NCBI GenBank assembly: GCA_008632985.1
Contig: QPGO01000001.1
Location: forward strand, 1,086,404-1,150,403
DNA: 64,000 nt
Direction of reading: 5' to 3'
Source of the DNA: Psammoneis japonica
Taxonomy: Eukaryota
Of the stretch, positions 32,501 through 55,900 are shown piece after piece. The notes beneath the pieces are model-generated. The model ran no database searches and was not told where the DNA came from. It saw only the letters and a program-made list of their open reading frames with translations. Positions within the stretch are counted from its first letter, which is position 1. Every line of letters begins with the position of its first letter. The translations under genes were made by a program, and so were the position numbers.

Positions 32501-33153
32501 GAAGCAGAGTTTTGCGCTGCTGGCACTGCTGCCAAACATGCACCTTGCCTCCATCACGTGCCACATGACCCAGGCTTTTCTCAGATAAAGCCAACCCTTT
32601 CATGCATTGACAACAAATTGGCAATCAAGATCATCAATCACTTGATCCCGACCAAGCGCTCACGCCAGTCACATTGAGACCCAGTTTTTTGCAATCCAAG
32701 AATGGAAGGAGGCAGGCAAACTTGTCACAAGACATGTCCCTGGCATTGTCAATCCCAGCAATGACCTTGACAAGGCTCTTGGTTGGGCACTGCATGCTCA
32801 CCACGCTCAACACATGATGGGACACTGTCGTTGATGTTTTTTTCCATGATGGCCTCCCTGCTGCGGTGCATTGTCCCCTTGTTTGCTTGCGCATTGGGCT
32901 TGGACACTCACAGTGTCCTTTGGTCTCTTTGTTTGCATCATCCCCATTCTTTGGTTTGATCTGCACTGTTCTCCATCTTGAGATGTTGCAGATCAGGGGA
33001 GGGTGTCAGCCCATCTGTCTGGCTGTCGTGTGATGGACAGACTGTGTGCGGATGATGACCGGACCATTTAGACAGACGAGCAGATCTCTCTTAGATCCGC
33101 CTCTCACTTTCTCATCTGCTGGCACTCATGTTGTCACAGTCCCAGTGCTCTCA
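29532..33153 (+). mobile_element. Internally deleted degenerate Ty1/Copia element (5' gag fused to the post-integrase region, RT, RNase H)
   Basis: LTR pair at about 29532-29663 and 33004-33153; PPT aggggaggg; ALQGHPESG, CQVDDF, TAASSTEAEF, CIDNK. No PR or IN seen, no clear TSD. Confidence 0.85.
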
Positions 33154-34829
33154 AAGCAAGGAGCCAAGATTTGTGATGATTTCCATGCTTTGTCATTGGC
33201 AGACATGGGTGTGTGTGAACACTGCATCAAGAAGCTTGGTTGTTTTTGTTGCATCCCATTTGCACACATGCTGGTGAAAAACATCAATGTTGAACATTGC
33301 ATCCATTTTGCACCACAGTTGCCTTGTTGCTAAAAAAAAAAGGCACAGCAGTGCACAAGGCTCCACTTTGCTGGCTCCCATGCCTGCATTGTTTGTGGAA
33401 TGACTTGTGTCACTTCAAAAATGTTTTGCTCTGTGACCGGTGGCTGACTTTCTGATGTGCAAAATGACCAGTTCTCACACACTTGTGTGTTTCTCATTCA
33501 AAAGAAACAGAGTGCTTCAACATGTGTGCACATTGAGTGGCATGTGCTTTTATTTGAGTGAGAACCTTTGTGAAAATTGGCCAAAAATGAGCGCAGGACA
33601 AAACACGAGAGTTTGAAAAATGTGCTCTTTTGGCATTCATTGATTTGGGGGTGCTCCGCGCCCTCAATTCCTGCCAAAAGAACAGCCAGATTTGGCACAA
33701 AATGAAATGAAGATGTCGCCACAGGGCAAAGTGATGCAGACTCCTTTCCAAAAAGTGAGCAACTGAGACCAGAGGCAGCCAAATCTGGTGCTCATTTTTG
33801 GCAGGGTGGGCACAGCAAACTGCACAGCCAGAAATCCTGCTCTTCCAAACATGGAATGACCATCAAGGTGCAGCTGCCAAGGAGAAAGATGGTCTTGTTG
33901 CCAAGTTGAAAGGGGCTCACACTGAGCCCAGTCCAGCAATTTTGTCAACATCAACTGCAAAAGTGACTTTTGGCCTGAGTTGTTTTGTGTGAGCTTGATG
34001 CAAAAGATGTTGATGACAAGACATTGCAGTCTCACACTCAGAAGGCATGAAGGAGACCATCTTTGAGGTGGGGTCTCTGAGGGTGGTGGATGTGCTTCTC
34101 AAAATGCATGGTTGAGTGACATCAGAGTTGCAAAACCTTGGGTGGCAACTGGACTTGCAAAGCAGCACATGGGAAGGATGTGGCTGTTGTCCAGGAGGGT
34201 GACAACAAAAAGGAGAGGACACCATCACACCACAAGCACCACAACAAACTTGACAGCAGCTCTGTTGCTCTTCTTTGGGCCAAGCAGTGTGCCACTGAAC
34301 ATGCCCTCAAACGTGCCATCAGCAGCCCCATTGGCAGTGCAGCCAAGGCTCCAAGCAAGCAATTTGCCCTCATGAATGCTGTCACTTGCACACCAGCAGC
34401 TCCAGCATCATTGGGTTGCATTTGACTGTCATTGGTTTCAAAGCAGATGCTGGTGGGCATTGATGCTGATGGGATGTGGCTGTGCAGCTTGTTCAGACTG
34501 TTCTGGTTTGAGCCACTTCATGATGAGGAGCAAATGCCACACAGCACTGCTGCTGCTGGCCAACTGCAGCACCCGTTCTCAACCTGATGAGGAGTTGCTC
34601 AACCTTTCTTTGGTCTTGCAAGTCAGAGCAATGCAAGATTGATGGCGTGGTGTGGGAAATGACAGAAATCAAAGAAGATTTGGATTTTGATGGTCAACAT
34701 TCATGATGAATGAGGAAACAGTGAATGGCAACTGTGACAAATTGGCAGCACAAATGCTGACAGACCCATTCCTTGGCCAGGAACAGAAACCTGTCAGCAG
34801 ACTGACAATGGTTCATTCTGGTGCAAACA

Positions 34830-35551
34830 AAGTGGGCTTGGGTTCAAGGCACACCAACCAAGTGTCTCAGCCATCTGGGCATCTGAACATCCGGGCTTGC
34901 CATCACAGGCATGAGACCAGGCACTTCCACCTTGCCAGGCCAAAAACTGTTCCTGACCCTGGAACACTTGTCCCCATCATCAACAGGGGCACCTGCAACG
35001 GTCCCTGCATGGATGTTGTGTAGACAGCAGCAAGGTGTTGCACTGCAGGTCTGTGCCAGAGTTCTGCTTGCTGTGTCCACCCAATGCCATCAATGCCTGA
35101 ATGATGGAGACAAAACAGGAGTGAGTCACTCTTGTTCAAATCTTGCCAGGGAAGCAATGTGGCACTCAGCTTTTGGAGGCTGAACACACGTGCGGGCTTG
35201 GGCTTGAGTCACACCAACCAAGTGTCTCAGCCATCAGGGTGTCTGAACATCTGGGCATGCCATCACAGGCATGAGACCAGGCACTTCCACCTGGCCAGAC
35301 CAAAAACTGTTCCTGACCCTGGAACAGTTGTCCCCATCATTGACAGGGGCACCTGCAACGGTCCCTGCATGGATGTTGTGTAGACAGCAGCAAGGTGTTG
35401 CACTGCAGGTCTGTGCCAGAGTTCTGCTTGCTGTGTCCACCTGATGCCATCAATGCCTGAATGATGGAGACAAAACAGGAGTGAGTCACTCTTGTTCAAA
35501 TCCTGCCAGGGAAGCAATGTGGCACTCAGCTTTTGGAGGCTGAACACATGT
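34830..35551. repeat. 360-bp tandem duplication in degenerate DNA
   Basis: cacaccaaccaagtgtctcagcc...ggaggctgaacaca is repeated at exactly +360. Confidence 0.95.
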
Positions 35552-38500
35552 GCCTGCAATTCAAGTTTCCTGTGTGGTGGGTGCAACCATCATTCTTGAC
35601 AATGGCTGAGTTGTTGATGCTGCTGTTGACGGCTGTCAAAAAGAGTTTGATGTCTGGTGTTGCAAGACAAGAGTCACATCAGCTGGCAAAACAACAGCTG
35701 CTCAGTGACAACACCACACTGGCAAACAGCTGGAAAGTGCATTGTGCAATGCTCTGGCCAAATGGCAAACTCACACAATTGAGAATGATTGCATGTGGGT
35801 CCCACATGGAGTTTCGTGTGCAATCTGAGAAGAGCAAGACATGGTGTTTCTTGGGTGCATGTCAAGCAACAGGAGACTCCACCTCAGTGCATTGCTGCTC
35901 AACATTTGGTGCAACCCAACTCCAAAAAGAAGCCCACCATGTGCCTTGGTTGGCAAGGGCATGCATGGTTGCCCAGCTCTGGTGGACCCAGAAAACCTCT
36001 TTGACACAAGAGACATTGATGCCCCAACCTGGAATGGTCTCAAGACTCAAGAATGCCATGTTTGCTGCAGACATTGGCCCCATCATTTAACTGCCATGGG
36101 TTCATTGTCAGCAGGACAATGGGAAAGGAGGGCTGGTTGGCTGGCTTCCCATTGATTGCCACCTTGTCTGCTGTGAAAATGATGGCTGTGATCAAATCCA
36201 TGCTGATGACAAGGATTGCCCACCAAAGACAGCAAATGTGTGTCATGACATCATCCCTTTTTTGTGGGCCATTGCACTTCAACAAGATTCTGACACTTCT
36301 TGCTTGGAGTGCTGTGGCAGATCCAGCAACACCACTCCAGCATTTGGAGGAAATCCATGAATTTTGAGTCAAATCAAAACAACACAACCATGATGGCGCC
36401 AAAAACACAGTGAGCAACAATGCAACGCACCAAGGAGCTTCTGGCCCCACTGAGTTGTCAAGCCAAATCCAACCAGACTGCTCAGACAAACAGGAGTGTG
36501 CCAACACAAAGGTGAATGACTTTGTAAAACCATCAGACCACACTCAGCAGACACACCTTTTCACAGCATTCCTGTGCAGGGCCACAGCCTCCAATGAGCC
36601 ACATCTGACCTCACCAAGAAATTCTTTAAACAGCCATCAATTAAAGCCACTTGCACATCTGGGCTCAGCACACCCTCAAGAACCAGCTTGGCTGCATCAT
36701 CCAGGTGAAGCAAGGCATTGTGGTGGTGGCACTGGCAGGTGAAGTGCTCTGGGAAAGGAGCGGCTTCCCTTTGAACTTTGGTGTCCTCTTCTTGGCACCT
36801 CTCTTTGTCACCAAGGGAAATTTTGAGAGAGACTGCAACAGCGTGGACTGTTGGATTCACATGTCAAGAAACTTTGTGAACAGAAGCTGACACTTGGGTT
36901 TTGGGAGTGTGTCTCATGTCTGGGAATGAAAATCTGACAGACATCCGAGATGAGGAGCACACTCCCTTGTGCCAGACAGACTGGCACAGACAGTGCCAAG
37001 AGATCCAATGATCTCTCTCTGCTCACTTTCTTTCTCATCCACCGGTGGCACACGATTGTCATCTGTCCCAGATGCCAGTTAGATTGCCCCGATGCTGACA
37101 GTTTGCAAGGTTGTGAGCAGCAGGAGTGCGCTGTTTGTCTTCCTTGGCGCAACTGCGTTGCAACATTCACTGTGTGATTTGGCAAGGTTTCTCCGTTGAA
37201 ATCGTCATCTTTGTCACAGCCATTTTTCTCACTTGATTTGTGATCATCACGACCACCGTAGACCACATGCCAGTGCTCTGTGTGGGATTTTGATTTTTTT
37301 TTCCCATGCAACCATGGCACCAACTGAGCAAACTTCTGTCAATTTGACCAAGATCAAGTCGTTGCGGGTTGAATTCAGACCGCAAAATCACTTGCCTGAT
37401 GCCCATTCTTGCCTGAATGAACTTCATTCTGACATGACACCTGCTCCCAAAGATCTTCTGGATGGATTTGCTCCTCCAGCCCTCAAGCCCAACGCGTCAC
37501 AAGATTGTTCATGATCCAATCATCCCTCAGGCTGCCTTGAACAAGGACCTCAAATGGATTGGACCACTCATCAACAAAGCTTCTCTCTTTGTGGCTGCCC
37601 CTCAAGATGCTCCAATTTGTCTGAACCACACCATTCTTCAGAAGGCTGCGATCAAAGCAACCTCAGATGATCAAGACACCACAGTGCACATGTTGGGACT
37701 GTCAGTCTCTTCTTTCATCCTGGTTGTGAGAATTGTCTGTGTTGGGATGACATCTCTGACACCCCGCACCCAACATCCCCGTCTCCTCCAAGTTCTGCAT
37801 CTCAACTGGCAGCCACTGTAGTTCCGACCCCTGAAGATTTTGATGCTGAGGCCTCAGCTGCTCATTCACCTGGTCCAAAACAGTTTGAGCAAGCTGTGAG
37901 CAATGCATTGAAGACCTCTGCAGCTTCTGCACCACCTCCTGCACCTTCTGCCATGACTGCCACTGCTGTGGTTTCTTCCTTGACAACCACTGGTGCTGTG
38001 CACACCTTCAATCCAAAAGGACTTCCAAAGGATGCACTGGCTTGCTGTCAACGCAAGGAAGCTGGGAAAGTGGTGTCAGGGAAGTCACTGGCACCCCACA
38101 AGTCGGGAAATCTTTGCTGTGAAGACAGCACCGAATGCCTCATTCTTGCTGATGGTTCACTTTTTGTCCATTGCACTGATTGGGATGCTAAGTTGTTCCT
38201 TTGCAATCCCTTGACCTGTGACCACATCTCACCTCAAGGAATCCAAGCATGGCACACTGCAGCAACCCAACAAGCCTTGGCTTGTGGCACACACATGCAT
38301 CCTCTATGGTGTTTCATCAAGGATGGTGGAAACTGGGGCTTCACGAGTGGAAAGGACCCAACTGATGACCTGCCACTTTGCATGCGCGCGCTGCTTGACC
38401 GCATGAAGCTTGCACCATTTCAGTGCATCCAGAAGGTTGGGATTTTCCCAGCCAGTTCCAAGTGCCCCGATGTTGTTTGCCAATGCCATGGAGATGGACA

Positions 38501-40810
38501 TGCTGCCCTCAAGATGATCCCATTTGACATTCTTCCAATTTGGACTAAGCACCCGTTTGAACTGATCAAGAGCCACCCGCACCAGAACAATCTCATGATC
38601 CTAAGTCACTGAGCTCCATTCAGGGATTTCCTCCTGCTGCGGGCCATCATTTCCAACGTTGATGCCTCTCTTGATGATCCTGGTGAGCTGGATGTCTTTC
38701 TCAGCAACACCCAACATGGAGACCATCTGCACAGAAAGACGGTGGATGCTGGGGAAGACAAGAACAAGCAACACAAATTTGCTCAACAGAAGATTGTCAA
38801 ACGATTGCCATGATCCTCAAGGAACCAGACAGTCCTGCTCTTCATCTCAAGGACCCTCCCCAAGCACCCTGCGCGGTGTCTCCAGAACCAGAACCCGGCC
38901 AATCCTCCCCTTGCAGCTCCTCTTTAAGCCCTTGATTTGTCACCTAAAGACAAGGTGCCAGATCTGCCTCCAATTGTTGAGGAAACTCCAACGGAAAGCA
39001 ATCCTCCTCCTGCAGAAGAACCTGTGGAAACCATGGAGTGTTTTGTAAATGAGCTTGCTGCTGTGGAAATTCCTCTGGATGATGAGGCACAAGCACTGCA
39101 TGGTGTTCACAAAGCTTGCATCTACAGGATCAAGTTGTCACCCACCATTGCACAGACTTGACCATGCATTGTCTGTGGTGATGGCCACTTGTTCCATGAG
39201 TGCCCGGTCTTGAACAATGCTGAGCATCTACACACTTGTCTCATCTGATTCTTCCAATTCCTTCAATGTGACCAACGTGCCCAAGATGCACTTGAGGATG
39301 GCAAAACCAAAAAGGATTTTTCCTGGGGCCATTGTTGCGTTTGGACAAACAATGCTGCCCATCTCTTCCCAATCCAAAAACTCATGCAAGCGGGGCAACT
39401 GCAAAAGAGGGTCTAACAGACTCATTGCCTCCCACTGAAATGCCTCTTTCACATGTCTCATTCGCCAACCTTCTTTCAAACTTGTCGAAGGCCAGTGCTC
39501 TGGATCTCAAGACGATTGCAGATGATGACCCTGACACCAACAATCAGGAGAGGGGAACACCTTCTCATGAAGCCTTCATAGAAGAGACTGACATCCCCCC
39601 ATCCAGTGATCAAGACCAAGATTTTGAGCACCTTGACATGGCCACCAGCCAACACTTGTCACCTTTGAGTGCAGCACGCATCTCCCCAATTTTTTCTCCT
39701 CTGGAATCACCTGCAGTTTTTGAATCTTTGGCTGCTCCTGTCATCCCCATCAATCATGTGATGCATGATTCAACAACACACCACACACAAATTGATGCTG
39801 GTGCTTGGGCATCCTGTGCAGGTGACAAGCACCTCCTTCATGCCTGCACCCCATTTGGCCCAGACAATCCTTGTCCTTTGAAGATGCTCCCTGCTGCTGA
39901 AGGCTCTGACATGGTCCCTCATGGCTTTGGTCATTTGCAAGCACCTGCTGCAAATGCTGATGGTTTCCTTCTCATGCGCACCTTCCACCATCCCAGCCTG
40001 CGTTCCACCTTGATTGACAAACGCGACTTTACGCGGGCTTCTGGTTTTTGCACCAAAAACCATTTGCTCTGAGTCTCTTGAGAAGACTTGTGCTGATGGA
40101 ACTTGCACATTTGCTGCTTCGACTGATGCCCAAGAGGTGGTTGTCCATGGCATTCTCCGACATGGAAAGGTTTTTACCCAGCCCCCAGTCCCACCGTCTG
40201 TGAGCAATGCCTCTTTGACACCTGCAACACCTGACTCGACGTCGGTTGATGACATTGATGATGCATGCCAATGTGCAGTCTTCTGTGTCAACATTCAACA
40301 AACACCATCTGATCCTTGGATGACAGACACTGAGTTGTTTCCCATGCAATGCAATTCTGTTGCACACCCATCAACACCTTTGCCAAGTTCTGCCCCAGTC
40401 CGCTCTCTCACAGTCGAGACTGAACGTCTCCTTTGGCACCAATGCCTTGGACATCCCAGCGATCACTGTTTGTGTCATGCTCACAAGCACATCAAAGGGG
40501 TCCTAAGTTCTGCCATGCCAACCCAGTTCTTGACTGACAGGATTTGAACAGGATTTGGATGCGCGCGAAGTATCGCGCGCTGTTTAGTTTACCGCGCACA
40601 GTTTTGTGTGCTTTAGTTCCGCGCGTTCACGCGCGATGTAGTTTGCTTTCGAGCCACAAGGCTCACAAGAATAATAACAGTAGCCCGATTATACCGACTT
40701 ACCCGTCTTTCGGCTCCTGTGACGGTCTCTGAGCGGAGACTCATCTGCTATTTAGACAGCAGTAAGGAGTTATTGTTTGAATTCTTGCCATTTGCCTTCA
40801 ATTTCTGTCA

Positions 40811-40827
40811 GATTAACAGTCTTGCTC
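40811..40827 (+). promoter_or_regulatory. Putative primer-binding site complementary to a tRNA-Asn(GTT) anticodon arm
   Basis: gattaacagtcttgctc directly follows the LTR; its reverse complement GAGCAAGA-CTGTTAA-TC is an Asn anticodon loop with closing pairs. Confidence 0.6.
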
Positions 40828-41749
40828 ATTGTCAACCCATTGAGCAACCGCCATCGTCGTCGTTGATTTACCAACGACGCTATTTCAATTCTACGTGGAC
40901 CTCCGTATATATTCTACATACATCGGCAAGTCTACGCGCATTCAATACCAGGGCATCGGCAGGAAGTTAACGTCACCGTCAAGTCTCCTTACCGCTGGAT
41001 ATCTGGATTGATTATACCACCTTTGATCGCTGAAGACATACATTCAACGGTCATATCCAAGTCTATCCTTGATCCTCATCCCTTGATATACCTGTTCATC
41101 GGTTAACGGTCAAGAACCCTACATATTCAAGGATCTTCGTCGCTGAAGACATATATATATATACATGTCTTCACGGCCAAGAACCTGTACCCACTCTTCG
41201 GACTGCGGTTTTGCTGCCACTCTACAAGCACACCGAGTCCATTGTACCTGATCTACCCCGGACTACTGGTGCTCTACAGTTCCACTAGGTCCACGAGGAT
41301 GACTGTGAGAGCAAGCAGCCGTGATTGCAACCTGCGTTGGGGCGAGGGTGCTTTCCCGCGTTTGTTCGTTCGTCCACAGCGCCTGACGCCTGCGTCAACT
41401 GGCCAGCCTGATCGGGAAATCCAACCGACATAAAATAAGAACGGTTCGGGGGTCTTGTCCACCTCTGGTCAGCTCACCTGCAGGGGTTTACAACCCGCTG
41501 CTCCGCTCGCAAGCAACCCAAAGCGCCGCCAGCTGCGGGTTCGGACGTGCCGGCACAACTCTACGGACCGGATGGGAAGTTTAGCACTTGACAACGAACG
41601 GGATGACAAAGCCCGGCGACTTCTGATTTTAAGATGGTTCAAGATTTCAAGTCAAGTCCATTTCAAGTCAAGCCTGTTCTCACCCAAGTTTCGAGTCTGC
41701 CTTCGCTTCCCAACCCGAATTGATTGTCCTGACACCACTTTTGTCTGCC

Positions 41750-44700
41750 ATGGTTCTCACTCGTCAGCAACAAACCGATGGTTTCGAGCACGTTGTTGGA
41801 ACCGTGCTTGCCCAAGGTGCTGGGAGTCCTCTTCGTTTGGCTTTGGCCCAAGACAGCACAGACTCGCATCAGGAACTGTTCACGTTCACACCGTCCCAAA
41901 TCGACTCGCTTGAGTGCGACAACGGCACCAATGCAATCCCTTTGCCCCGTGGTTATAAGAACATGTCAGCAGCACCAGCTAGCCTGTGCATTGTCAAAGC
42001 ACACAAGGGTCTTGATGTTGCCAACAACTCCTCTTTGTTCACGCATGACGAGTTCCTTGCCCACTCGCCTCAGCCCGGACTGCATGTCCTCTGTGTCCAT
42101 CGGCAGCTCACCCCTTGCACCTCCACATGTCACCAACCCGACCAAGGCACGCGACCCGGTGCGAGACTTCAAGCGAGGCATCAAGCGTGATCCCACCGCT
42201 TTCACGGCTCTCAAATCCGACAAGCAGTGGCACACTTGGCACACCTCACTTGTGGCACAAGCCCGTGCCCAAGACGTCGAGTGCATTCTAGACTCGTCGT
42301 ACAAACCGACCAGCCCCGAAGACAAACTGCTCTTCACTGAACAGCAAAAGTGCATGTTCGCCGTCTTCGAACGCATCCTTCTCACCGACAAGGGCAAGGC
42401 TCTCATTCGCGAAAATGTGGGGTCTTCTGACGCACAGACCGTCTGCCGCTCCTTGTCTGAGTGCGCGCTTGCCTCCACCCGTGCATCTGTCGAGTCCTCC
42501 ACCCTGCTCACGCACCTCACCACCGCACGTCTTGGTGATGGCACTTGGAAAGGCCCGACCCACGGGTTCATCCTTCATTGGCAAGATCAGTTGCGCAAGT
42601 GCGAGGTGCTCATCCCTGCCAGTGACCACTTCTCTGAAGGACAGAAGCGCGTCATGCTCGAGAATGCCGTGCACCCTGTCGAGGAACTCCGTGCTGTCAA
42701 GAACCAAGCTGATCAGCACCGTGCGCAGAGTGGCAAGAGCCTCACATGCGATCAACACTGTGGCTTGCTCCTCTCCGCGGCAGCTCAGTGCGACAGCACA
42801 TTTCAACCCAAGACGACACCCAGAGCTCCCCGACGCGCCATGTGCGCACACGACGTCTACTCCGAGGAACCGTCCGACGATGTGTTCTACGACATTGACA
42901 GCGACGTTGACGTCCTTCAAGCCAATGCTGCCTGCACCCGCGGTCCCAGCCTCACCGGTGTCCAATGGAGACGTCTCCCTCCCGACCACCAACGGCTCTG
43001 GGATTCGTTGCCCGATTCCTCCAAGGCGATCATCCTTGAGCATTCTCGTCCGCCTCCCCGCAACCCGCGAGCCAGCAACTGCCATGAGTCTGTTACGGCC
43101 AACCTTCACGACCAACACCTTGGGAGTGACGGTGATGTCAACTTGTCCAACACGACTCCTGCTGACTGTGGTGACCCCGCTGCACATGTGGACGCCACTT
43201 CGGACAATCCCATCCTGGCGCACCTCACCAAGCGCAAGCCACTGCCACCCGGTGATCTGCAACGTCTGTTGTCTCCTAACCAAGCCCCCAATGCCAGTCG
43301 ACCGGGGCCATCCGCCGCTTCCTCTACCCCGCCAGCTTCTGCAGATAACACAGAACTTAACGGCCGCACTTGCCGCCGCGTTAACAACCACAATGTCATT
43401 TACTCTGCCTCTGCTCATCGCTCCACACGCACTGGCGCTCTAGTCGATCGTGGGCCAACGGCGGCATTGCTGGCGACGACGTTCGCGTCATCGCACGCAC
43501 CTCTCGCCAAGTCGACGTTCAGGGCATTGACGATCATCAATTGGTGGACATCCCCATTGTCACCGCTGGTGCCGTCATTGAGACCCAGCGTGGTCCCGTC
43601 ATCGCCATCCTCCATCAGTGCGCATGCACGGGAAAGGGCAAGACCATCCATTCCTGCGGCCAGCTCGAATGGCACAAACAGGATGTCAACGATCGCTCTG
43701 TCAAGGTGCCCAACGGCTTGCAACGCATTGCCACTCCTGATGGCCATGTCATCCCCATTGACATCAAGGCTGGCCTGCCTCATGTTGCCATGCGACCTTG
43801 CACTGACGCCGAATGGGACACCCTGCCCCATGTCATCCTCACCGGTGATGACACATGGGACCCTTCCGTCCTCGATCACTCTGTCACTGACGACGACCAG
43901 TGGTGCGACGCGATCTCTGACCTGCAGGACGATCCCACTGCCAACCCATTTGACGAATGCGGCAACTGCCGTCACCGTGTCGTTGTCAACGAGACCATCT
44001 TGTCCGCTTCCTTGTCTGCCGATCACGCGTCCGCCCTCGATGATCACCTCATTCCGAACGACGACGTGTTCTACGAGTGTCATCTGCATGCGATTGACCC
44101 CCAGGGCGATGACGTTCCACCTCCGGAGCGCACTGTACAGCCCAAGGACCCCCCCTTCGAGTCTCTTCGGCCTCACTTTGGCTTCCTACCTGCCGATGCG
44201 GTCCGTCGTACTTTTGACTGCACCACGCAGTACGCCCGCATGCCCGCCGGTACACACCTTCGCAAGGCCTGCAAATCACCCAACCCCGCCCTTAATGTGC
44301 ACCGCCGCAACGAGCCCATCGCCACTGACACCGTTTGTGCCGACACCCCGGCCGTCGACTCTGGTTGCACCAGCGCCCAACTGTTTGTTGGCACCGCGTC
44401 TACCGTCACTGACGTCTACGGCACTAAGACGGACAAAGAGTTTGTCAACACACTCGAGGATCAGATCCGTGAACGTGGTGCCCCATCCAAACTCATTAGC
44501 GACCGTGCTCAAGTTGAGATCAGCAACAAAGTGCTCGGGATCCTACGCGCCCTCTTCATCTCCAGCTGGCAAAGTGAGCCTCACCAGCAACACCAAAACT
44601 TTGCCGAGCATCGACACCAGACCGTGAAGCGCATGGCGAACACTGTCATGGACCGTTTTGGTTCACCCGCCCACACATGGCTGCTGGCGCTCATGTGCGT

Positions 44701-47420
44701 GTGCTTCACACTCAACCACACAGCGTCCCCACGTCTCCACTGGCGCACGCCCCTCGAGACTCTCACTGGATCCACCCCGGACATCAGCCCATTGCTTCGC
44801 TTTCACTGGTGGGAACCAGTGTGCTTCCACCTCGATGATTCCGATTGGCCGTCCGAATCCCGTGAGTTGCGTGGACGCTTCGTTGGCATTGCTGAGCACG
44901 TCGGCCACCAGATGACCTTCAAGATCCTATCTGACGAGACTCAGAAGATCCTCTGCCGGTCCAACGTTCGCTCCGCTACCCCCGATCCTGCCGTTCGAAA
45001 CCTGCGTCTTGATCCTCCTGATGGGGAGCCACCTGAACCCATCATCAAATCTCGCCATGACGACAACCCCGTCGATTCTCCTGATGGGGAGATCAGGACA
45101 CCCAAGATGCCAGTTTTCGATCCGCAAGACATCATTGGACGTACCTTCCTCATGCAGCCACAAGAGGACGGACAACGCCACAGAGCTCGCATCGTCAAGG
45201 CCGTCGAAGACCACGAATGGAAAGTGAACAGCAATCCCGAGCTCACTAAGTTCGTCTGCTCTGTCAACAATGACGAATGCGAGGAAGTCCTTGCCTGCAA
45301 TGACATCATGAATCACATTGAGCAAGAAGACGAAGACACCACCATTTGGAAATTTCGACGCATCGCATCACACGAAGGACCTCTGAAGCCTCACGACCCA
45401 ACCTGGAAAGGCTCAAGCTACAACATCATGCTTGAATGGGAAAGTGGGGAGATCACGTCCGAGCCTCTTGCCATCATCGCCAAGGACGACCCCGTCACCT
45501 GTGCCATCTGTGCACGAGAGAACGGACTCCTAGACACGGATGGCTGGAAGCGGTTCCGCACTATCGCGAGGCACCAAAAGAAGCTATTTCGCATGGCCAA
45601 CCAAGCCAAGCTTCGCTCCTTCCGCACTGCACCTCGCTACAAGTGCGGATGCGAAGTTCCCCGGAACTACAAACACGCCATGTCACTAGACGAACGCAAC
45701 GGCAACCGCAAGTGGGGAGACGCAACTAATCTCGAGATGGACCAACTCGACGAATACGAAGTCTTCCATGACTGCGGGCCCTTCAAGTCTTCCACTCCTC
45801 CTGCGGGACACAAGAAGATCCGAGCGCACCTGGTGTTCGACGTGAAACACGACGGTCGCCACAAGGCACGACTCGTAGCCGACGGGCACCTCACGGACGT
45901 ACCTGTCGACAGTGTCTACTCGGGGAGCAGTCTCCCTCCGTGGCCTTCGGCTGATGATTTTCCTGGCCGAACTCAACGAGCTGGAGACATGGGCCACCGA
46001 CATTGGCAATGCCTGCCTTGAAGCCACCACCAAGGAGAAGCTTTACATTGTAGCTGGACCCGAATTTGGCAAACTCGAAGGACACATCCTTGTCATCCAC
46101 AAGGCACTGTATGGACTGCGCAGCTCCGGTCTCCGCTGGCACGAGCGCTTCGCCGACTGCCTGCGAGCTGAAGGCTTCTTCCCCTGCCGCACCGAACCCG
46201 ACATTTGGATGCGCAGGAACGGCGACCACTGTGAATGCATTGGCGTTTATGTGGATGACCTCGCCATTGCCATGAAAGACCCTCAATCTTTCATCGACAC
46301 TCTCACGGAAAAGTGCAAGTTCAAGCTCAAGGGTGCAGGACCCATTGAGTTCCATCTGGGTTGCGACTTTTCCCGGGACCCCGACGGAACCTTGTGCCTG
46401 TCTCCGCGCAAGTACATCGAGCGCATGGTCGACAGCTGCGCCCGATTGTTTGGGGAGAAACCTGCCACCAACGCCCTGTCACCTCTAGAGAAGGGTGACC
46501 ACCCCGAACTGGACACTTCCGAACTGCTGGGACCCGATGGCATTCACAAGTTCCAGTCTCTTGTTGGTTCACTCCAATGGGCAGTGTCCCTTGGTCGAAT
46601 TGACATCACCACGGCTGTCATGTCACTCTCTAGCTTCCGAGCTGCACCCCGTCAAGGCCACTTGGATCGTGCCAAACGCGTCTGTGGGTGCCTCTCCAAG
46701 ATGCGACACGGTGCTCTCCGCGTTCGTACGGAAGAGCCCGACTGTTCGGATCTCCCTGCTCCGGCCTGTGAATGGATGCATTCCGTGTATGGTGAAGCAG
46801 AAGAGATGGTCCCGAAGGACGCTCCACCGCCCCTTGGCAAGTTCGTCACTACCACCCACTGCGTCGATGCAAACTTGTACCATTGCATGCTCACCGGACG
46901 CTCTGTCATGGGAATGCTCCACTTCCTCAACAAATTCCCGGCTGATTGGTTCTCCAAGAAACAAGCCATCGTGGAGACTGCAACCTGCGGATCTGAATTT
47001 GTTGCCGCAAGGAATTGTGTTGAGCAGATTGTCGACCTGCGCATCACCCTGCGCTGCCTTGGCGTCCCGATCCGTAATGTCAGTTGCATGTTCGGTGACA
47101 ACAAGTCGGTTGTAGACAGTGCCACCATCCCGCACTCCAAGTTACACAAGCGACACACCGCACTGTCGATCCACCGTGTGCATGAGGCAATTGCCTCTGG
47201 TCACCTTGAGTTCCACTTCATCGAAGGCTCCCGCAACCCTGCTGACATTCTCAGCAAGCATTGGGGTTGCTCCCAAATCTGGGACCTTCTCCGCCCCCTC
47301 ATGTTCTGGAACTTCATCCCATCCGAAGTCGAATCTGTTTCTGTAGCTCCTCAAGCAAACTGGGGAGTGACAGGATTTGAACAGGATTTGGATGTGCGCG
47401 AAGCATCGCGCGCTGTTTAG
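41750..47420 (+). pseudogene. Copia gag-pol polyprotein; three 1-nt frameshifts (about 42065, 43452, 45925), no internal stops, many Tyr->Cys/His changes
   Basis: FKRGIKRD (gag), LVDRG/ANGG (PR), ATDT..SDRA..FAE (IN D-D-E), HKARLVADG, KALYGL, VYVDDL (RT), VDANL, GSEF, GDNKSV, NPADILSK (RH). Confidence 0.93.
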
Positions 47421-50400
47421 TTTACCGCGCACAGTTTTGTGTGCTTTAGTTCCGCGCGTTCACGCGCGATGTAGTTTGCTTTCGAGCCACAAGGCTCACA
47501 AGAATGACAACAGCAGCCCGATTATGCCGACTCACCCGTCTTTCGGCTCCTGTGACGGTCTCTGAGCGGAGACTCATCTGCTGTTTAGACAGCAGCAAGG
47601 AGTCATTGTTTGAATTCTTGCCACCTGCCTTCAATTTCTGTCATTGACATTTGCCCCATGTGCATCCAAGCAAAGCAAGTCAAGACACCTGCTGGACCAA
47701 ATTCAACTTGAAAGGCAACTCAACAGAGCATCAAGGCCTTGCTGTGGATTTTGCTTTTGCCGGTCAGGCATCCAAGAATGAAGAATGCATGTCTGATTGT
47801 CTTGGCTGCAATGGTGAAATGTGTTGGATCACTGTCTACGACCACAAAACACGCATGCTTCATGGTGTTGCACGGATTTCTGAAGCCAGCCCTCTCAAGT
47901 GGCTTTGCCGATTTTTGGATCAACACTTGCCGAATTGTCATGACAAATGTGTGTTGGTGGACCAAGGTGGGGAATTGCACAAGAATCCCAAAGTTTGTGA
48001 CCTCTTTGAACAAGAATTCCAGCATGACATTTGTCCATCTGGTGCTGGCATGTCCAATCAATGCAACCCTGTTGAACGCTCACATTTGACTGTTGAGAAT
48101 GTGATTTGTGCAATTTCAATCGGCGCCAACCCCCCGATCAGATTCTGGCCCAGTGCTTTTTACCATTGCCTCCGTGTTAAGAATGCCACTCCTGCAAAAG
48201 ACCAAGATGCATCTCCTGTCACCCTTGCAACTGGGAAGGTTGAAGATTTTACTTCCTTGAAGACTTTTGGATGTTGAGTGTGGGCCAAATGGTCCACAAA
48301 ACGCTCTGCCACCTTCTGCTCCAATTCCAAGAAAGGTGCATTCCTTGGATGTCTCCAGAACACCCTGAAGAATGTTCTTTGGTGGGATCCAGAGACTGAC
48401 AAAGTCAAGACAGCCAAACATGCATGACATGACGAGGGCATGAATGACCTGTCTTTGGACCAACTTCTTCGAATGCCACCCAGTTGCAATGCATGGAAAA
48501 TGGCCAGCCTTTTCTGGCTGAAATGCAGGACACAACTGCTCCAATGTTTGCCTCTTCATCAAATCCTTTTGCCAACTTGCACCATGAAACGTCCTCCCAT
48601 GGACCCCACCCATGGTTTTGTTTTCTCCCAGTGCGCTCTCATGGACCATGACTGTGTCTCGGAAATCAAGCAGCGCAGTCCCGCGGCCTCCTTGTTCTCC
48701 TCTCTCCGTGCTGCTCAGAACAAGCTCATGGGTGCACACGTTATCTCCATCAACAAGCACAAAGTCTTTGCACCACAAGATGCTGAAAAAGCACTCCTGC
48801 AGGTCCACTGTGATGAGATTCCCACCTTTGAGATTGTTTTTGCACCTGAACGACATCTGGACCCTCGCACTCTTAATGAGGCTTTTGAGGAAGTGGAGTT
48901 GTTTGACCCTGATTCAAAGGAGGATGATTCCCATGTGCCTGAACTCAATTTGGAGGATGTGCGATCCATTGCAGCTGTCCTCCACCCTGATGATGATTTC
49001 TCTGATGAAGCTGTTCCAACAGATGTCTTTTGTGCTCATCTTCATGCTGTCAGTTCCCGTGCTGTCACTCCGGAAGAAGCTGCTCTTGATTGTCTTGCCC
49101 GTGCCAAGCTCCATAAACTTGAAACATGGCCGGAATGGGAAGAAGGAGAAAAGCGTCAATTGGACCAATTTTGCGCACTTGGTGTGCATGGTCCCCCGCA
49201 ACTGTGCCCTCCTGGAGTGAACGTCATGCATCCGCATTGGGACTGTGTGGCAAAACCAGATGGACAATGCCGTTCTCGACAATGTGGAGACGGACCCAAG
49301 TCAGCTGTGCCAGCGTTGCACAAACTGACTCCACGCATTCTTTGTGTGTGGAACGCTTGATCAAAAAGATGTTTTTTGCTCTCAGTGCTGCCATGTCCCA
49401 TTGAATTTTTGGCGGTGATGCCCGAGATGCACATGCTCATTCTGCTGGTCCTTCACAGCCGGTGTTTGTTGCCATTGATGATGCCTGTGCTGCATGGTGT
49501 GAAAGTCACTTTGGCATGAAAGCACCCCGCCATTGCATCCTCCCGCTTGAGCATGCTCTCCAAGGCCATCCCGAGGCTGGTGTCCTGTGGGAGAAGCACA
49601 TCAATTTGATTCCAGCCAGTGTGAAACTCCTCTTCTGCTGCACTGCTCATGACAAGTGCATCTGCTCTGGTGAATGTGATGGTGTCAAGGTTCTGTCACT
49701 CCATCAAGTTGATGATTTTGCACTTGCTTGTCCTTTGAGAAGATTGCAAAAGAGATCCATGATCACATTGGAAAGGCTCTCCAGATGGAGAATGAAGATG
49801 CTCCTCCGTTCAAGCATTTGGGCCCAGTCACCGCATTCAATGGTGTTGATGTCATTTAGAATGATGATTTGATTACAATCAACATTGCCAGCTGCCTTGA
49901 TTGTGTCTTCAAGACCCATGGATGGGATGCTCCTGCTGCAAATGAAACTGACACTGACTTCAAGGCTGCGCCTGTGCCGGTTGATTGCATTGCTGAGCTG
50001 TGTGCTGCTGAAGGCCCCGAGGAGGGCACTCCTGAGCATGATGCCCTTTCTGACTCCCACGGCTTTTCCTGCCACTCTGTCTTGGGTGAGTTGGTCTTTG
50101 CTTGTCAGTGTTGTTGCTTGGACATTGGCTGTCCCATTGTTGCCTTGTCCAAGTTCTCCAAGGCTCCGGCTGATGTCCACTGTGATTCTCTCAAATGCAT
50201 GGCTGAGTGTCTGCAGCGCACCAAAAATTGGGGTTTGACACACAAGAAGACTGAACGTGATCCGGGTCTGCCTCCCCATGACTTTGAATGGCTTGAGGAT
50301 GATCCATCCCTTCCTGGCTTCCCCCATGCTGATGATCCTTTTCAACTCCTTGGTTTTGTCAATGCAGCACATGCCAACGAACTGTGGCATCGTCAATCCA

Positions 50401-52958
50401 CTGCTGGATGTGCACATGTCCTTGCTGGTGCTGCAGTTGATTGTCGTTGCTGCACACAGACCATTGCAGCCACCAGTTCCACCAAGGCTGAATTTTTTGC
50501 AGCTGTCACTGGTGCGAAGCAGACCTTGCACCTCCGAATGGTCCTTGAAGAGCTGGGCTTTCCTCAATGTGACCCTGCTCCCTTGCACATTGACAACTCC
50601 TCCACCATCCAGATGATCAACAACAAGGTGCCTGCAGAGCGCTCCTGCCACATTGACACTCATCATTTTGTGATCCAAGACTGGCGGAAAATTGTCACAA
50701 GACACATCCCGGGTGTCATCAACCCTGCTGATGTGCTGACCAAGGCTGTGGGCTGGACACTCCATTCCCACCACACCTGTTGTCTGATGGGACACTGCCA
50801 TTGTTTGCCATTTTGTTTGTGTCTGTCTCTTTGTTCTGCTGTTCTGGTCCTCATTTTTTCTTCGGATTGTCTCCTTTCTTGATGAGCTTTTGCATTGCTC
50901 ATCAGGGGAGGGTGACAGACATCTGAGATGGGGAGTGCACTCCCTTGTGTCGGACAGACCAGCACAGACAGCACCAAGAGATCTGATGATCTCTCTCTGC
51001 TCACTTTCTTTCTCATCTGGCACATGATTGTCATCTGTCCCAGACACCAGTCAGATCGTCCCGATGCCGACAGTCTGCAAAAATCTCCCGTGCCAAGAAC
51101 CACTGAGCTTGTGTTCCTGTTTGCACTTGAGACTGGAGCTTTTGACTCATGTGGAGGACTGGTTTTGTTGGGCCATTGGGTGATGCTCTGTTTGGCAATG
51201 CAGTGCATCAGAAGTTGGGTGCTTTCTTTCCAATGACTTTGGCCACAGCCCAGCTTGTTTGTCAGTCTAAAAATCTTGGGCACACTCCAGAACAAGCACA
51301 AGTGACAGGGCCACTGAAAATTTGTGGTGTCATGGTCTTGGCTGCTCAAAAATTGTGCTTGCATCCATGGCAATGTGCAGCTGTCAAGTTGCTCAAAGAA
51401 ATGCAACAAAGCTGCCTTCTCTTTGTGTGCCGTTGACATCTCTTTGGAGAGAGGGGTGACTTCTTGAGTGAGTCTCATTGCTTTGCCATGACAGCGCTGC
51501 TCTGACAAGAAATTCTCTTCTTTTGTTTGAAAATGCATGCACACATGTGTTGCAGATGTGACTCTTGACACACACTCTAGCCTCAGGTGGGACTTCACAT
51601 GACAGCAGCCAACAAAATTCTGTGCACAAGCTCTGCAGGTCTCGCTCTCTTGTTTGCAGGTGCATTTGTCCATGCACCACTCTAATGAGACTTGAGAGTG
51701 GTGCACAGAAAGTGTCAAAAGTTGTTGAATGGACAGCTTGACAACTGCGCTGCAAAATGACACCAAGCTCTGCCAAAGCCACGCAGAAGTGTGCATGTGG
51801 GGCAAAGGGAAAAGACAAAAAACTGTTGACATGTCACAGCTCAGCAGTGCAAGGCCCCTCCCAGAGCTGGAGCTCATCTCTTGTTCTTTGTCATTGTGGC
51901 TTTCTGCACCTTCCCTCATTTTGTTGCGCACTCAAGGCACGCACAGTTGGCCGCCAGTCATTTGCTGGTGTGCACTGCAGCCAAAGGAAATGTGATTGTG
52001 ATTTGATCTCAGTCTTTTGTGAGGCCCAACTCAAAAACATTTGTCCTTGGTGATGCTCGTCAATGTTGTCACATTCAAATGTGATTTTCGGGTGTGTCAA
52101 TTGCTTCAGAGACATGTCCTGCACAATTCATGAAGAGCCACACCTGCGAAGCTGGACGGTGCCAAATTGTGCGGGACATCCCGCGATCAATCGGGCATTG
52201 GGCGTGCTGTCGCTTCTGTGGTTGCGCGTTGGTCCCGGAGCATCAACAGTCATTGTCAAAATGACCAATCGTTTCGGAAATGTCAGTGTGACAGGCATTG
52301 GGCACATGTATGCACTCGTGATTTAGAAGAATAATGCTGCACTTAGAACCCATGCGACAATTTTGGTAAGACAAACATGCTTGCGTAGTCGTAGATGTGA
52401 TGTCAGTAACGGCGAAACTAGCCATAGGGCTTATGGCTTACTTTCTTTGGTGACTGTGCGACCATCATGAGAAAAAGGGTGGTTTCTTGGTAATGACCGC
52501 CTAAATGACCTTTGAAACATCGCCAACATCCTCGGATTTATGTCAAGAGTCATTGTGTAGTCGTATGAACTGCTGACTCTTCGTGGTCGCTCGTATTGGG
52601 CTACGGGATTTCTTTTTTTTTGAAGTCATCTGTCCGAGCGCCGGTCACAAAATCTTTTCACACGAAAACAATAACGCACACAACTTCTTTCACCCGAAAG
52701 AGTTTGATCGAGTGTGAGATTGACCAAGTGTGAGTGAAAAATGGAGTTTTGTGGTTTAAATGAAAAGGTTTCTATGTTGGACATGATACCTGTTCTTCTC
52801 AGCCGCTAGGGAAACATACTCGCTTCAGAAATGGGCCTTTTAGCTCTTGAAAACCACGGAGTGTCTTCTTATCCTCAATTTCTCTCTTTGTTTCCCCGTT
52901 TTTTTTTTCGACAGGAATTGAATATTTACAACAGATATCAGAGGCATAGATTGTGACT

Positions 52959-55900
52959 ATGAAGGTCCTATCTTGTGCTCTACCGTTTCTATGCCTTTGT
53001 CTTTCTGAGACTAGTGTGCAGGCCATCGGCCATGAACAACCTCAGGTGAGACATTTCACAGCCTTTTGATCTACCACCCTCGATAGGAACCTCATGATTT
53101 GTCCATGCTCATCTCATAGGAAGCGAAGTCGTTGAAGGGGCTTCTCTCCTCCTGGTTTAGCGGAAAGGAGGAAGCGGAAGAGGAACCCCCAATCCCCAAT
53201 CCCTTGTCGCGTGAGTTGGCTCCAAAGGTGAGTCTCTCGTTCATGTTCATTATCGTCATCGCTTCGTCTGTTTGAAGAGTGACTGGAGGAACTAATCGCT
53301 TTCTTTTTCTGACCCCTTTGCGTGCCGCAGGGCTTGAATGTCGCGCTTCTGTCACCACATGGGCGAGTGGTTGTAAACCGCGATCATCTGAACAATCGTA
53401 GGAGGCTTCAGACACCGGTGCAAACGTACTACGTGCCATTTCCAGAAGGCAGCCTCCTTACTGGTTTTGAGCAAATCAAAACTACTACCACCACTAAACC
53501 ACAAAGTCCAATTCAATCGATTAGTTCGTTTGCCTTCGCTGTGGACAACACTCGTATCTGGGTTGACCATGTTGAAGATGGCTACGACCCGAATCCGCAG
53601 CTGCCAACCCAGGCCACTACGGAAATTTGGGGCGACGGCGATTGCTCAAATGGCTATCGTCCTGATCTTGATGAATGTATTCCAGATGTTGACGATGCCA
53701 AGGATGTCTTGAACGCGGGCGATGCATTCGTGGTTCAAGAAAGCATTGACATCAGCAACGGAGTTCGCGACGATGACAGCTGCCTTTTGGATCCAAGTGC
53801 CCCTGGTTTCGACTGCAAGATTAACGCAGGAGACAAGATTCAGGCTTCCTTTCCCATTGCAGTCACCCGTGGAGGCTACGCTTCTAACTCAGGCCCACTC
53901 ATGGCCGGTGCCGTCGAGGTGTTCGACACCGATGAATGGGGACGGGAATTTCGTAACCCTCTGCCCTCTGCCGATGATTCCCTCAACTCGTTTGATTACC
54001 GCTCCATATACATCATGGCACAGGAGAATGAGACTGTTGTCTACATGTATAATGACGACACAGGTGTTATGGATGAGGTTGCAAAGTTGGACGAAGGCGA
54101 AACTTATGTCAACAACGAAACTACGACGAACGACTTTTTCAACACCACCAAGCCGGTTCAGGTCGACCTTTTTAGCGGCAAAATCGGTTCGACTTTCGAG
54201 ATCCGTTGGTACTCTCTCCCCTCCATGGAAAAGTGGTCGAATGAGTACTATACGCCTGTTGGAAGTGCGTACAAAAAGAATGAGAATGGAAATGTTGTGG
54301 CCACACCTCAACCAAACACATATGTAAGTCTAAACGAGGTGAACCATTTGAAACATGTGCGTCCACTAACTTTGTTGCTCACAATCTCCCCTACCGGACT
54401 AAAGGTATTTTTGTATAACCCGAACCAAGACCAAAACATCTCAATCTTTGGTGAATGGATCGACTACACGACCAATCCCGATAGTTACGAAGTCGGAAGC
54501 GAATCAGTTGGTAGCGGTCAGAGCCAAGAGTTTGACCAGACGGTTCCCTTCAACTCCGGTATGAGGCTTTACACATCGTCTCCAACAGATGCATTCTTTG
54601 GATTTACCAAGACGGATGACAAGAGTCGTTATGACTGTAAGTCACGTGCCAGCTCTCTTTCCCAAGTATCATCATTCAATTTCTGATCACCGCTGTTTTT
54701 TTGTTGCTGTCGCTTCGTCTGTTACAGGGGGGCATCGTGAGTATCGCCAAGGGTATCCTGATTTGCCAATTCTTTTCGAGCGTTGTGCTTGCTAACTCTC
54801 TCTTTTTCCGTGCTGTATCTTTAGCTTTGATTGCTGCCGACCAACTCACCTCCCAGGCACTTATCGGTTGGGGTTGGGGTTGTCGAGAAAAGTGCGTAAT
54901 TCTAGTTGGACACCCTCGAATCAACTCTCATGGTTACTAACGCTTTGCTTGCTTTACATTTCATAACAGCAATTGCTCGCTCACCAATGGGACGAGATTG
55001 GAAGATAAAAGTGTAGTATGGGTTTCTCCCGTCGAGGATGCAACGATCTACGTAGATGTCGACGGCGATGATGTCCCGGATCAGAACTACACCATGGTGC
55101 GACTTCAGTCAATTCGAATCACAGATCCAGATGACGATGACATGACAGGTAAGACCGCAGGGGTTTCAATCTTTTATGCCTGTTTTGGTCTCGCACCTCA
55201 ATGGTGTTCGCCACTTGCCCCAACTCCTTGACTCAGGTGCTCTGATTTGGGCCAAGTCTTCTAATGGATCGGATGTCGACATTGCTGTAGCCTGGGGTGA
55301 GTTGTGCAATCCTTTTGGTTGTCGGCGCAGCGACTACGCTTATGTTGATTATTTTGTTGTGTGCGTCTAACTTTGAATTGTTCTTCATCCTTTCACAACA
55401 GGGCAAGATCCTTTCGTCTCATTCGATGACCAGCAATTCTCGCTTGATCTTGGTACTGTCATCCCACCACTTCCTGTCCTTTCAGCTGGCAAGTCCGCGA
55501 AAGTTTTGATCGATGTTGACGGAGATGGGTTGGTCGACTTGGGCGACACGGTTCAATATACGATTCGTATCACAAACACAGGCCGCGCAAATTTTCCTGC
55601 GGGAACTTGGTCAGTGACGGATTTGTACTCGGACGTGCAGCTGACAGGTGACTATGTCCCGGGTACTACGGTCTATTACGACGACTTCACCAAGACTACA
55701 ACGAATATAACTGACAGTGGACCAAACGGTTTTCCCCTGGAGGATGGTTTGCTTTCAGTTCAAAACATTGCACCTGGCAGCTTCCATGAGGTCACTTTCA
55801 ATGTTATCATCAAGGATGCTATTGAAGACATTTCGAACGGAACGACACAGATTATCAATAGCGGGTTTCTCACTCACGAAAATGACACGAACCCTTTCTT

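Follow-up and report, generated by a model that had tools for sequence, protein, structure and literature searches.

How could the two long terminal repeats (LTRs) of a single retrotransposon come to differ mainly at TpA dinucleotides? The question is raised by a Copia element of the diatom Psammoneis japonica, located at positions 40535-47643 of the window analyzed here, a stretch of 64,000 nucleotides (GenBank assembly GCA_008632985.1, contig QPGO01000001.1, positions 1,086,404 to 1,150,403, forward strand). An initial annotation, made from the letters of the sequence, had read this LTR pair as the direct record of a mutator that removes TpA. We are fairly confident that the pair is the footprint of a TpA-specific A:T>G:C hypermutation in duplex DNA, which turns TA into CA or TG and is aimed at transposon-derived DNA. 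The two LTRs are as follows, with TpA content also expressed as an observed/expected ratio (O/E):

40535-40810 (+): 5′ LTR, 276 bp, TG...CA; 15 TpA (O/E 0.82) and 21 CpG; TA state at all nine TpA-type differences
47368-47643 (+): 3′ LTR, 276 bp; 6 TpA (O/E 0.38) and 20 CpG

Aligned as the annotation had proposed, here with MAFFT, 40535-40810 and 47368-47643 form 276 columns without gaps and differ at 12 sites, all of them transitions. Numbered by LTR position, with the 5′ state before the 3′ state, the differences are:

28 C/T; 37 T/C; 139 A/G; 141 T/C; 147 T/C; 159 A/G
166 T/C; 216 A/G; 229 T/C; 237 T/C; 257 T/C; 258 T/C

The annotated tally proved exact on realignment, with six TA/CA, three TA/TG and one CG/TG difference, and one tandem TT/CC pair that accounts for two sites. 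Nine of the 12 differences fall within the 30 TpA positions (hypergeometric P = 1.1 × 10−7), as do 9 of 11 when A/T positions alone are considered (P = 9.6 × 10−6). Our recount also agrees that the 3′ LTR lacks 9 of 15 TpA and 1 of 21 CpG (Fisher P = 4 × 10−4), and the divergence of the pair amounts to 4.3% overall compared to 1.2% outside TpA positions. If the differences are read as losses from the 3′ LTR, one strand carries eight T>C and three A>G changes, and A:T>G:C changes make up 11 of the 12 differences. Because T>C and A>G occur on the same strand, a one-strand RNA edit is ruled out as the cause of the LTR differences, and the annotated claim of an action on both strands, distinct from RNA editing, holds for the LTRs. 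Moreover, both LTRs inherit any edit made in RNA, or in cDNA ahead of plus-strand transfer, and such edits cannot make them differ. ADAR-type hyperediting fixed by reverse transcription, which would leave sense-strand A>G in the same places of both LTRs, was considered and rejected, given that the LTRs differ and do so by eight T>C and three A>G.

The comparison presupposes that the two LTRs are sisters, a premise of the annotation that is upheld by a shared private base. Both LTRs have C at LTR position 169 (40703 in the 5′ copy), where A accounts for 99.4% of the family depth in contigs of run X1. The common C identifies the LTRs as true sisters, neither replaced by a random family member nor polished to the family consensus.

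Which of the two LTRs holds the ancestral state determines whether TpA was lost or gained. Were the 3′ LTR ancestral, its CA and TG would be original and the 5′ LTR would have gained TA by C>T and G>A changes at CpA and TpG, the polarity of classical fungal repeat-induced point mutation (RIP). All 12 differences would then be C:G>T:A, the commonest class of mutation, and nine of them would sit in the CpA/TpG context favored by fungal RIP. Conserved codons argue strongly for the opposite direction. The protein columns used take the element as their anchor and show conservation of 70% or more across 32 to 311 homolog matches. Of the 24 conserved Tyr columns in gag-pol, 15 have Cys in the element, one His, seven Tyr and one Phe, while the conserved Cys (3/3), His (20/20), Gln (14/14) and Trp (19/19) columns are unchanged. 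Changes from Tyr to Cys or His at 16 of 24 columns thus compare with changes from Cys or His to Tyr at 0 of 23 (Fisher P = 6.5 × 10−7), and in the region of reverse transcriptase (RT) and RNase H alone, 11 of 16 conserved Tyr columns are now Cys (TGY). In nucleotide terms, TA is conserved at 18 positions of 23 unmutated relatives; the element has TG at 11 of these, TT at two and TA at five, whereas TA was gained at none of 70 conserved CA/TG positions, and no change from Gln or Trp to stop was found across 2300 codons.

Other copies of the family point the same way. Run X1 has 443 variable places along the element, and family states refer to the 40 of these that are listed, none of which is one of the 12 LTR sites. 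Among these 40, places in the leader that have CA or TG here have TA in 41-85% of other copies' depth. At codon 42756, Tyr is found in the outgroup proteins (87% of 23), CAC in the present copy and TG in 58% of the depth of other copies; these three states point to an ancestral TA. Codon 42756, anchored by the outgroup Tyr, is the only CA/TG double difference between copies that we used, because an ancestral CG gives the same pair. Older transposable element (TE) DNA in the window has less TA (O/E 0.03-0.05), and the three TA of the YTAR class common to both LTRs (R and Y denote purine and pyrimidine) conform to the rule of loss, YTAR being the flanking context that best survives it. We therefore regard a RIP-like polarity as very improbable. 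Taken together, the changes at conserved columns, the TA-poor old TE DNA and a common flanking-context rule make TpA loss the well-supported direction, as judged from sequence comparison.

Beyond the element, the window itself is partitioned by the same signature. Its 1-kb bins are bimodal in TpA, and a two-state segmentation assigns 38.6 kb to hypermutated and 25.3 kb to plain sequence, with borders that adjoin genes, among them 8301/8304, 20073/20075, 22474/22479 and 52145/52147. The hypermutated segments, and the TE fragments recognized within them, are:

9-8301 (no strand): hypermutated segment; TpA O/E 0.05, CpG 0.19
10901-11981 (no strand): hypermutated segment; TpA O/E 0.03
14641-20073 (no strand): hypermutated segment, from the two-state segmentation
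22479-40534 (no strand; segmentation end 40560): hypermutated domain upstream of the insertion; TpA O/E 0.05, CpG 0.24, CpA 1.76, TpG 1.86
24558-25169 (-): RT fragment of a long interspersed nuclear element (LINE), within the upstream domain
29694-32062 (+): old Copia fragments, within the upstream domain
47649-52145 (no strand; segmentation start 47590): hypermutated domain downstream of the insertion; TpA O/E 0.04, CpG 0.29
~49998-50756 (no strand): Copia RNase H fragment, within the downstream domain

Overall, the hypermutated segments have TpA O/E of 0.03-0.05, CpG O/E of 0.19-0.29 and CpA and TpG O/E of 1.64-1.91, with CA and TG equally raised in the old TE DNA. The old domains (35 kb) hold 110 TA, about 5% of the ~2340 expected from base composition; the erased sequence is complex and not of low complexity, and the reading frames of the old TE fragments encode 0-1% Tyr and 2.6-7.9% Cys. 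The plain segments, with TpA O/E of 0.49-0.65 and CpG O/E of about 1, contain a Rab18-like gene, an RWD gene, a Glyco_transf_49 (GT49) gene and a giant repeat protein. Within this one window, the process is confined to TE-derived domains and spares host genes, acts on both strands and stops sharply at genic borders, and a uniform process across the genome was not borne out. Arranged by age, TpA O/E falls from 0.82 in the 5′ LTR to 0.38 in the 3′ LTR, 0.32 in the element body and 0.03-0.05 in the old TE domains, the opposite of the trend that RIP would give, while CpG O/E is ~0.95 in the element and 0.19-0.29 in the old domains. The whole element has a TpA O/E of 0.35 and a CpG O/E of 0.95, in agreement with the annotated claim that TpA loss precedes CpG decay; the lead is roughly an order of magnitude.

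Related Copia loci in metagenome contigs serve as a control. From 50 loci fetched, we examined the 28 long matches and left out 22 that were short or near-duplicates. Conserved Tyr is retained at 16-19 of 20 columns in 23 of the 28, two are gapped and three are hypermutated:

L030: TpA O/E 0.13, CpG O/E 0.74; conserved Tyr to Cys 8, to His 6
L029: TpA O/E 0.27, CpG O/E 0.80; conserved Tyr to Cys 8, to His 7
L009: TpA O/E 0.31, CpG O/E 0.76; conserved Tyr to Cys 5, to His 3

These three are the only loci among the 50 with the TpA-loss signature; the other 47 are normal in this respect, some of them showing CpG decay alone (L005, L049). About half of the TA remaining in L029 and L030 is YTAR.

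The bases flanking TA rank its losses in the same order in old DNA and in the LTR pair, as seen from the following counts:

TA left in 35 kb of old bins (110): RTAY 1, YTAY/RTAR 55, YTAR 54
TA in genic bins of the window: RTAY 186, YTAY/RTAR 384, YTAR 82
TA in 47 unmutated relatives: RTAY 34%, YTAY/RTAR 50%, YTAR 17%
TA lost of total in the LTR pair: RTAY 2/2, mixed class 7/10, YTAR 0/3 (Fisher P = 0.044)

The old-bin counts depart from the genic and relative baselines at about P = 1 × 10−22 (chi-square). At the level of the duplex, RTAY is lost first and the mixed class next, and YTAR survives. The LTR differences follow the ranking of the old DNA, which adds to the case for reading them as losses that one and the same process has caused. 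We also tried a strand-specific motif, namely A>G at 5′-TAY on either strand, and rejected it: the LTR sites fit it in 6 of 9 cases, and in L029 the Tyr codons preceded by Y became His six times and Cys once, those preceded by R Cys seven times and His once.

Loss is distributed unequally along the element, with an undepleted leader giving way to a depleted body at about 41600:

40535-41600: 5′ LTR and leader; TA observed 57, expected 65
40811-41600 (+): leader, or 5′ untranslated region; TpA 42 observed, 46.6 expected, 20 of the RTAY class
41601-47367: remainder of the element up to the 3′ LTR; TA observed 59, expected 266
47368-47643: 3′ LTR; TA observed 6, expected 16

The leader is not wholly untouched: at 41018, 41094 and 41283 it has CA or TG in place of the TA found in 50-85% of the depth of other copies. 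Its sites of the RTAY class include an (AT)n run at 41151-41163. This run lies within an inverted repeat at 41141-41175, GAAGACAT-(AT)n-ATGTCTTC, a potential hairpin that is intact although ATAT belongs to the most vulnerable context class. Six CpG losses are private to this copy relative to the family (41300, 41855, 41860, 42026, 42800 and 46191), five of them CG>CA and one CG>TG; a strand bias of CpG decay is possible from these small numbers.

Several observations weigh against a TpA-specific process in duplex DNA as the sole explanation. First, all 12 changes lie in the 3′ LTR (12:0, P = 5 × 10−4; TpA-type changes 9:0, P = 0.004), a split that a process hitting both LTRs equally would not give. 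Of the annotated reading of the pair as a direct mutator record, TpA loss at the DNA level in the LTRs therefore stands, but the pair is not the simple clock of a uniform mutator. Second, TpA accounts for 9 of the 11 A:T>G:C changes, the other two being the TT>CC pair at 257-258, both states of which are present in other family copies. Third, the polarity of the 12 LTR sites is drawn from proteins, composition and context, and other copies give no more than hints at those sites: three clipped contig ends have TG at 166-167 (where the LTRs have TA and CA), TT at 257-258 and CC at 257-258, respectively. Finally, Tyr codons lost in the body (41733-47345) became Cys 15 times and His once (binomial P = 5 × 10−4), a sense-strand A>G bias shown neither by the 3′ LTR nor by the three hypermutated metagenome relatives (Cys 21, His 16; P = 0.01 compared to the body). 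Some of the TA deficit of the body may accordingly have arisen at a different stage, for instance in RNA or during transcription, or have predated the insertion.

The one-sided split, together with the contrast in TA between the 5′ LTR and leader on one side and the remaining element on the other, could also arise if the LTRs were not identical at the start or if one was replaced. Conversion from the same sub-lineage, by a younger copy or by cDNA, might have affected the 5′ LTR and perhaps some of the leader, or the element might have originated by recombination with a resident LTR. The pair would then set an old, mutated LTR against a young one instead of recording 12 hits made in place after a single insertion, leaving the mutator and its direction unchanged. 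Potential donors are plentiful, the family being of very high copy number (14128 contigs of run X1 align to the element). Against this stands C169, which is present in both LTRs and in ~0.6% of family depth, making a random donor very unlikely. The leader moreover has TA and CpG losses of its own relative to the family majority (41018, 41094, 41283 and 41300), requiring that a converted tract end before 41018, and the target-site duplication (TSD) is intact. We consider such a replacement unlikely. Under hypermutation of duplex DNA, the split would suggest that the action is regional or episodic and not uniform, and a protected promoter-proximal island is the reading we find most economical for the spared 5′ LTR and leader, judging from the distribution of TA.

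The Tyr-codon bias bears on a second alternative, according to which much of the body's TA loss is sense-strand conversion of A to inosine at the RNA or transcription stage, inherited at insertion. Selection for transposition would have preserved only the cis-acting parts (LTR and leader), the proteins being provided in trans, and the LTR differences would be a later layer made in DNA. Apart from the 15:1 ratio, this account would explain why the recent losses of this copy lean the other way, to CA (4 CA and 2 TG in 41018-41988; 6 CA and 3 TG in the 3′ LTR), and why the step near 41600 is sharp. A slighter point is that, among the 40 of 443 family differences listed, the 15 Cys codons are absent and six other pol sites at ~100% are present. 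However, the RT-RNase H region has 81 CA and 89 TG per kb compared to means of 73 and 74 in the 23 unmutated relatives; with both raised, the body bias is not general, and sense-strand A>G alone does not describe it. In addition, the leader belongs to the same RNA and yet is spared, CA and TG are equal in old TE DNA, and selection against His at those columns could also yield the bias. We thus regard an RNA-stage origin of most of the body's loss as rather doubtful, albeit worth keeping in view. The bias itself may reflect an RNA-stage or transcription-linked part, selection in lineages that transpose with proteins in trans, or chance, and the 15:1 ratio leaves room for some RNA editing in the coding body, in distinction to the LTRs.

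To what extent could the signature be an artefact of base-calling at modified bases, of polishing with multi-mapped reads, or of chimeric assembly of a high-copy repeat? A family of this copy number invites collapse and mis-polishing, and the four sequencing runs found share a single sample and study, and could be the very data behind the assembly. The host gene in an unmutated segment serves as a control for base-calling:

20345-21610 (+): host gene Glyco_transf_49 (GT49), unmutated segment

Here, 9 of 10 conserved Tyr columns are kept as TAT or TAC, with 18 TAY codons in the gene. The retained Tyr codons indicate a standard genetic code and show that TA is not read away by sequencing, and on this control we rejected both a changed genetic code and a reading of modified A as G. 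Together with the genic TpA O/E of 0.49-0.65, they exclude a global misreading of TA. As for assembly, single-copy-depth contigs of run X1 match the flanks at 40000-40473 (three other letters) and 47618-47840 (one other letter), and the latter contig spans the CC sites and the 3′ junction. Polishing directed by the family would have turned the private C at 40703 into A, and the same signature is present in metagenome contigs from other projects (L029, L030, L009). An artefact accordingly has very little to recommend it, and we give it the least credence of the alternatives considered.

The element that carries the LTR pair is assigned to Copia on the basis of an RVT_2 domain plus homologs spanning protease, integrase, RT and RNase H. 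Its remaining parts are:

40530-40534 (+): TSD TTGAC, upstream copy, read from the sequence
41733-43451 (+): gag portion of the polyprotein; frame 41733-44627 is free of stops, residues 146-418 match homologs
43451-45922 (+): protease, integrase and start of RT; frame 43385-46021 (P0001), residues 23-847 match full-length Copia polyproteins
45924-47345 (+): RT (RVT_2) and RNase H; frame of P0003, RVT_2 at 45930-46440 (Pfam)
47357-47367 (+): candidate polypurine tract, short purine-rich CTGGGGAG, directly before the 3′ LTR
47644-47648 (+): TSD TTGAC, downstream copy, the same five bases as upstream

The LTR pair is the sole direct repeat of at least 40 nt within 39500-48700. Paired TG...CA LTRs, a 5-bp TSD and an RVT_2 RT downstream of the integrase region place the element in Ty1/Copia; no Pfam match to an integrase domain was found in the element, and residues 23-847 of P0001 still align to full-length Copia polyproteins. 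The reading frame is lost near 43451, where most other family copies have one additional base, and again near 45922/3, where other family copies have one base fewer. These two frameshifts relative to other copies spread gag-pol over three frames, leaving the copy dead. Its best named RT homolog is from the diatom Cylindrotheca (67% identity). The element resembles the Ty1/Copia elements of diatoms (CoDi-type) in its RVT_2 domain, its order of gag, protease, integrase, RT and RNase H, its 5-bp TSD and its TG...CA LTRs; it differs from them in the two frameshifts and the 15 conserved Tyr that have become Cys.

A blastn search of the 64-kb window found no other copies of the LTR or the element, and a transition-blind purine/pyrimidine search of the window likewise found no further copies (best score 66, background median 44). 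An exact 22-mer of the LTR had 0 matches in the metagenome contigs. Single-copy-depth contigs of run X1 link 40492 with 47651, across 16 unmatched letters, as well as 40460 with 47732. These joints may represent an allele or a paralogous flank without the element; they are not a clean empty site, and the insertion would be heterozygous if they are allelic.

Among the neighboring genes, the named matches of GT49 are diatoms, and the following three were recognized:

8706-9370 (+): Rab18-like small GTPase, at least two exons
10124-10730 (-): RWD-domain gene
55377-64000 (+): giant intron-free open reading frame (ORF) of more than 2211 residues that extends past the window, with DUF7507/DUF11-type Ig-like repeats and a DNA period of ~660 bp

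All named best matches of the Rab18-like exon are diatoms (Odontella, Attheya, Thalassionema, Fragilaria, Seminavis and Chaetoceros; 78-83% identity). The Rab18-like and RWD genes lie in 2.6 kb of unmutated DNA, an island with an erased TE domain on either side and borders at ~8301/8304 and 10892/10901. The fully erased block of 1.1 kb at 10901-11981 lies between genic segments, has sharp bounds and resembles a small old TE insertion. The giant repeat ORF has TpA O/E of 0.6 and CpG O/E of 1.1, untouched by the mutator. Given the internal repeats of this ORF, it seems that being repeated is not in itself enough to set off the process.

How does the process compare to known systems? It shares with fungal RIP the restriction to transitions, repeat and transposon targets, a dinucleotide preference, sharp gene borders and a strong index shift. 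RIP, however, is C>T at CpA and makes TpA and AT-rich DNA, whereas here TpA is destroyed and CpA and TpG are made. Membership in fungal RIP is ruled out by the TpA O/E of old repeats and by the absence of TA gain at the 70 conserved CA/TG positions. RIPped DNA is recognized by a TpA/ApT index above 0.89, and the index here is 0.15-0.24. CpG decay by deamination of 5-methylcytosine has the same TpG/CpA sink and affects the same TE domains, but it accounts for 1 of the 12 LTR differences and lies far behind TpA loss in the young element. With APOBEC and ADAR editing, the process shares clustered, context-dependent transitions of deaminase type in retroelements; APOBECs differ in producing plus-strand G>A, of which there is none here apart from one CpG site.

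The closest parallel comes from the chlorarachniophyte Bigelowiella natans, as described in a recent preprint (Mettrop et al. 2026, bioRxiv 10.64898/2026.01.13.699255). Mutation-accumulation lines of this species had 231 mutations within two stretches of integrated viral DNA. Of these, 230 were A>G or T>C, each of the 230 at TpA, arising at ~6 × 10−7 per site per generation and in some lines alone. The same source reports that TpA-poor coding sequences are enriched for RT and DDE domains, proposes an ADAT2 homolog as the candidate enzyme and notes in its Discussion that ADAR and TadA/ADAT enzymes prefer U before the edited A. Both systems consist nearly exclusively of A>G and T>C at TpA, yielding TpG and CpA; both target foreign DNA and leave the rest of the genome normal (here, of one window); and both combine long-term low TpA with high CpA and TpG, with episodic activity in B. 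natans that could explain patchiness. The systems differ in that the B. natans mutations are de novo, whereas our evidence is comparative, drawn from the LTR pair, conserved codons and composition. They also differ in organism, target and degree, with two viral insertions in a chlorarachniophyte (TpA Rho 0.45 in the region derived from a nucleocytoplasmic large DNA virus) compared to LTR and LINE retrotransposon domains near saturation in a diatom (TpA O/E 0.03-0.05). In a text search of the preprint, flanking context, CpG and LTRs did not come up; new relative to that text are the ranking RTAY>YTAR, the finding that TpA loss shares its domains with CpG decay and runs ahead of it, and the spared 5′ LTR and leader. 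We found no report in the literature of TpA-loss hypermutation in diatoms or LTR retrotransposons, the B. natans preprint alone being relevant.

These considerations suggest the following course of events. The Copia copy would have inserted into an already erased TE domain, after which 9 of 15 TA would have disappeared from the 3′ LTR, with its 5′ sister and the 0.8-kb leader remaining largely intact. The adenine at TpA may be deaminated to inosine by an enzyme of the ADAT2/TadA type, as proposed for B. natans; general Pfam scans found no deaminase gene within the 64-kb window. Targeting would probably follow the chromatin domain or episodic local bursts and not sequence identity, in which case identical LTRs 6.8 kb apart could fare differently. 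The process may serve as a genome defence. More tentatively, we envisage a diatom genome defence that amounts to RIP in reverse, in which a chromatin-directed, adenine-deaminating or thymine-modifying activity would erase TpA, RTAY first, from every retrotransposon domain, fast and ahead of CpG decay, while leaving a 'TpA island' at the active 5′ LTR and leader. Other marine protists (L029, L030, L009 and Bigelowiella) might then share this system, which would represent an old and widespread immunity of the stramenopile-alveolate-rhizarian (SAR) clade, an idea that goes well beyond the locus and that we hold loosely.

The finding has practical consequences. LTR-based dating is distorted, given a divergence of 4.3% overall compared to 1.2% outside TpA, and repeat finding by nucleotide similarity breaks down, as old copies retain just their purine/pyrimidine pattern. 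Conversely, a search for the enzyme can build on three features, namely the preference for RTAY, the sharpness of domain borders and the spared 5′ LTR and leader. TE-directed hypermutation is textbook knowledge for fungi, as RIP, and, by cDNA editing, for vertebrate APOBECs; to our knowledge, the textbook examples are limited to these two cases. A TpA-specific A:T>G:C counterpart has a single prior report, the 2026 chlorarachniophyte preprint, and the same signature is found here in a diatom, at saturation and across most of 64 kb. The process may thus be widespread among ecologically dominant algae.

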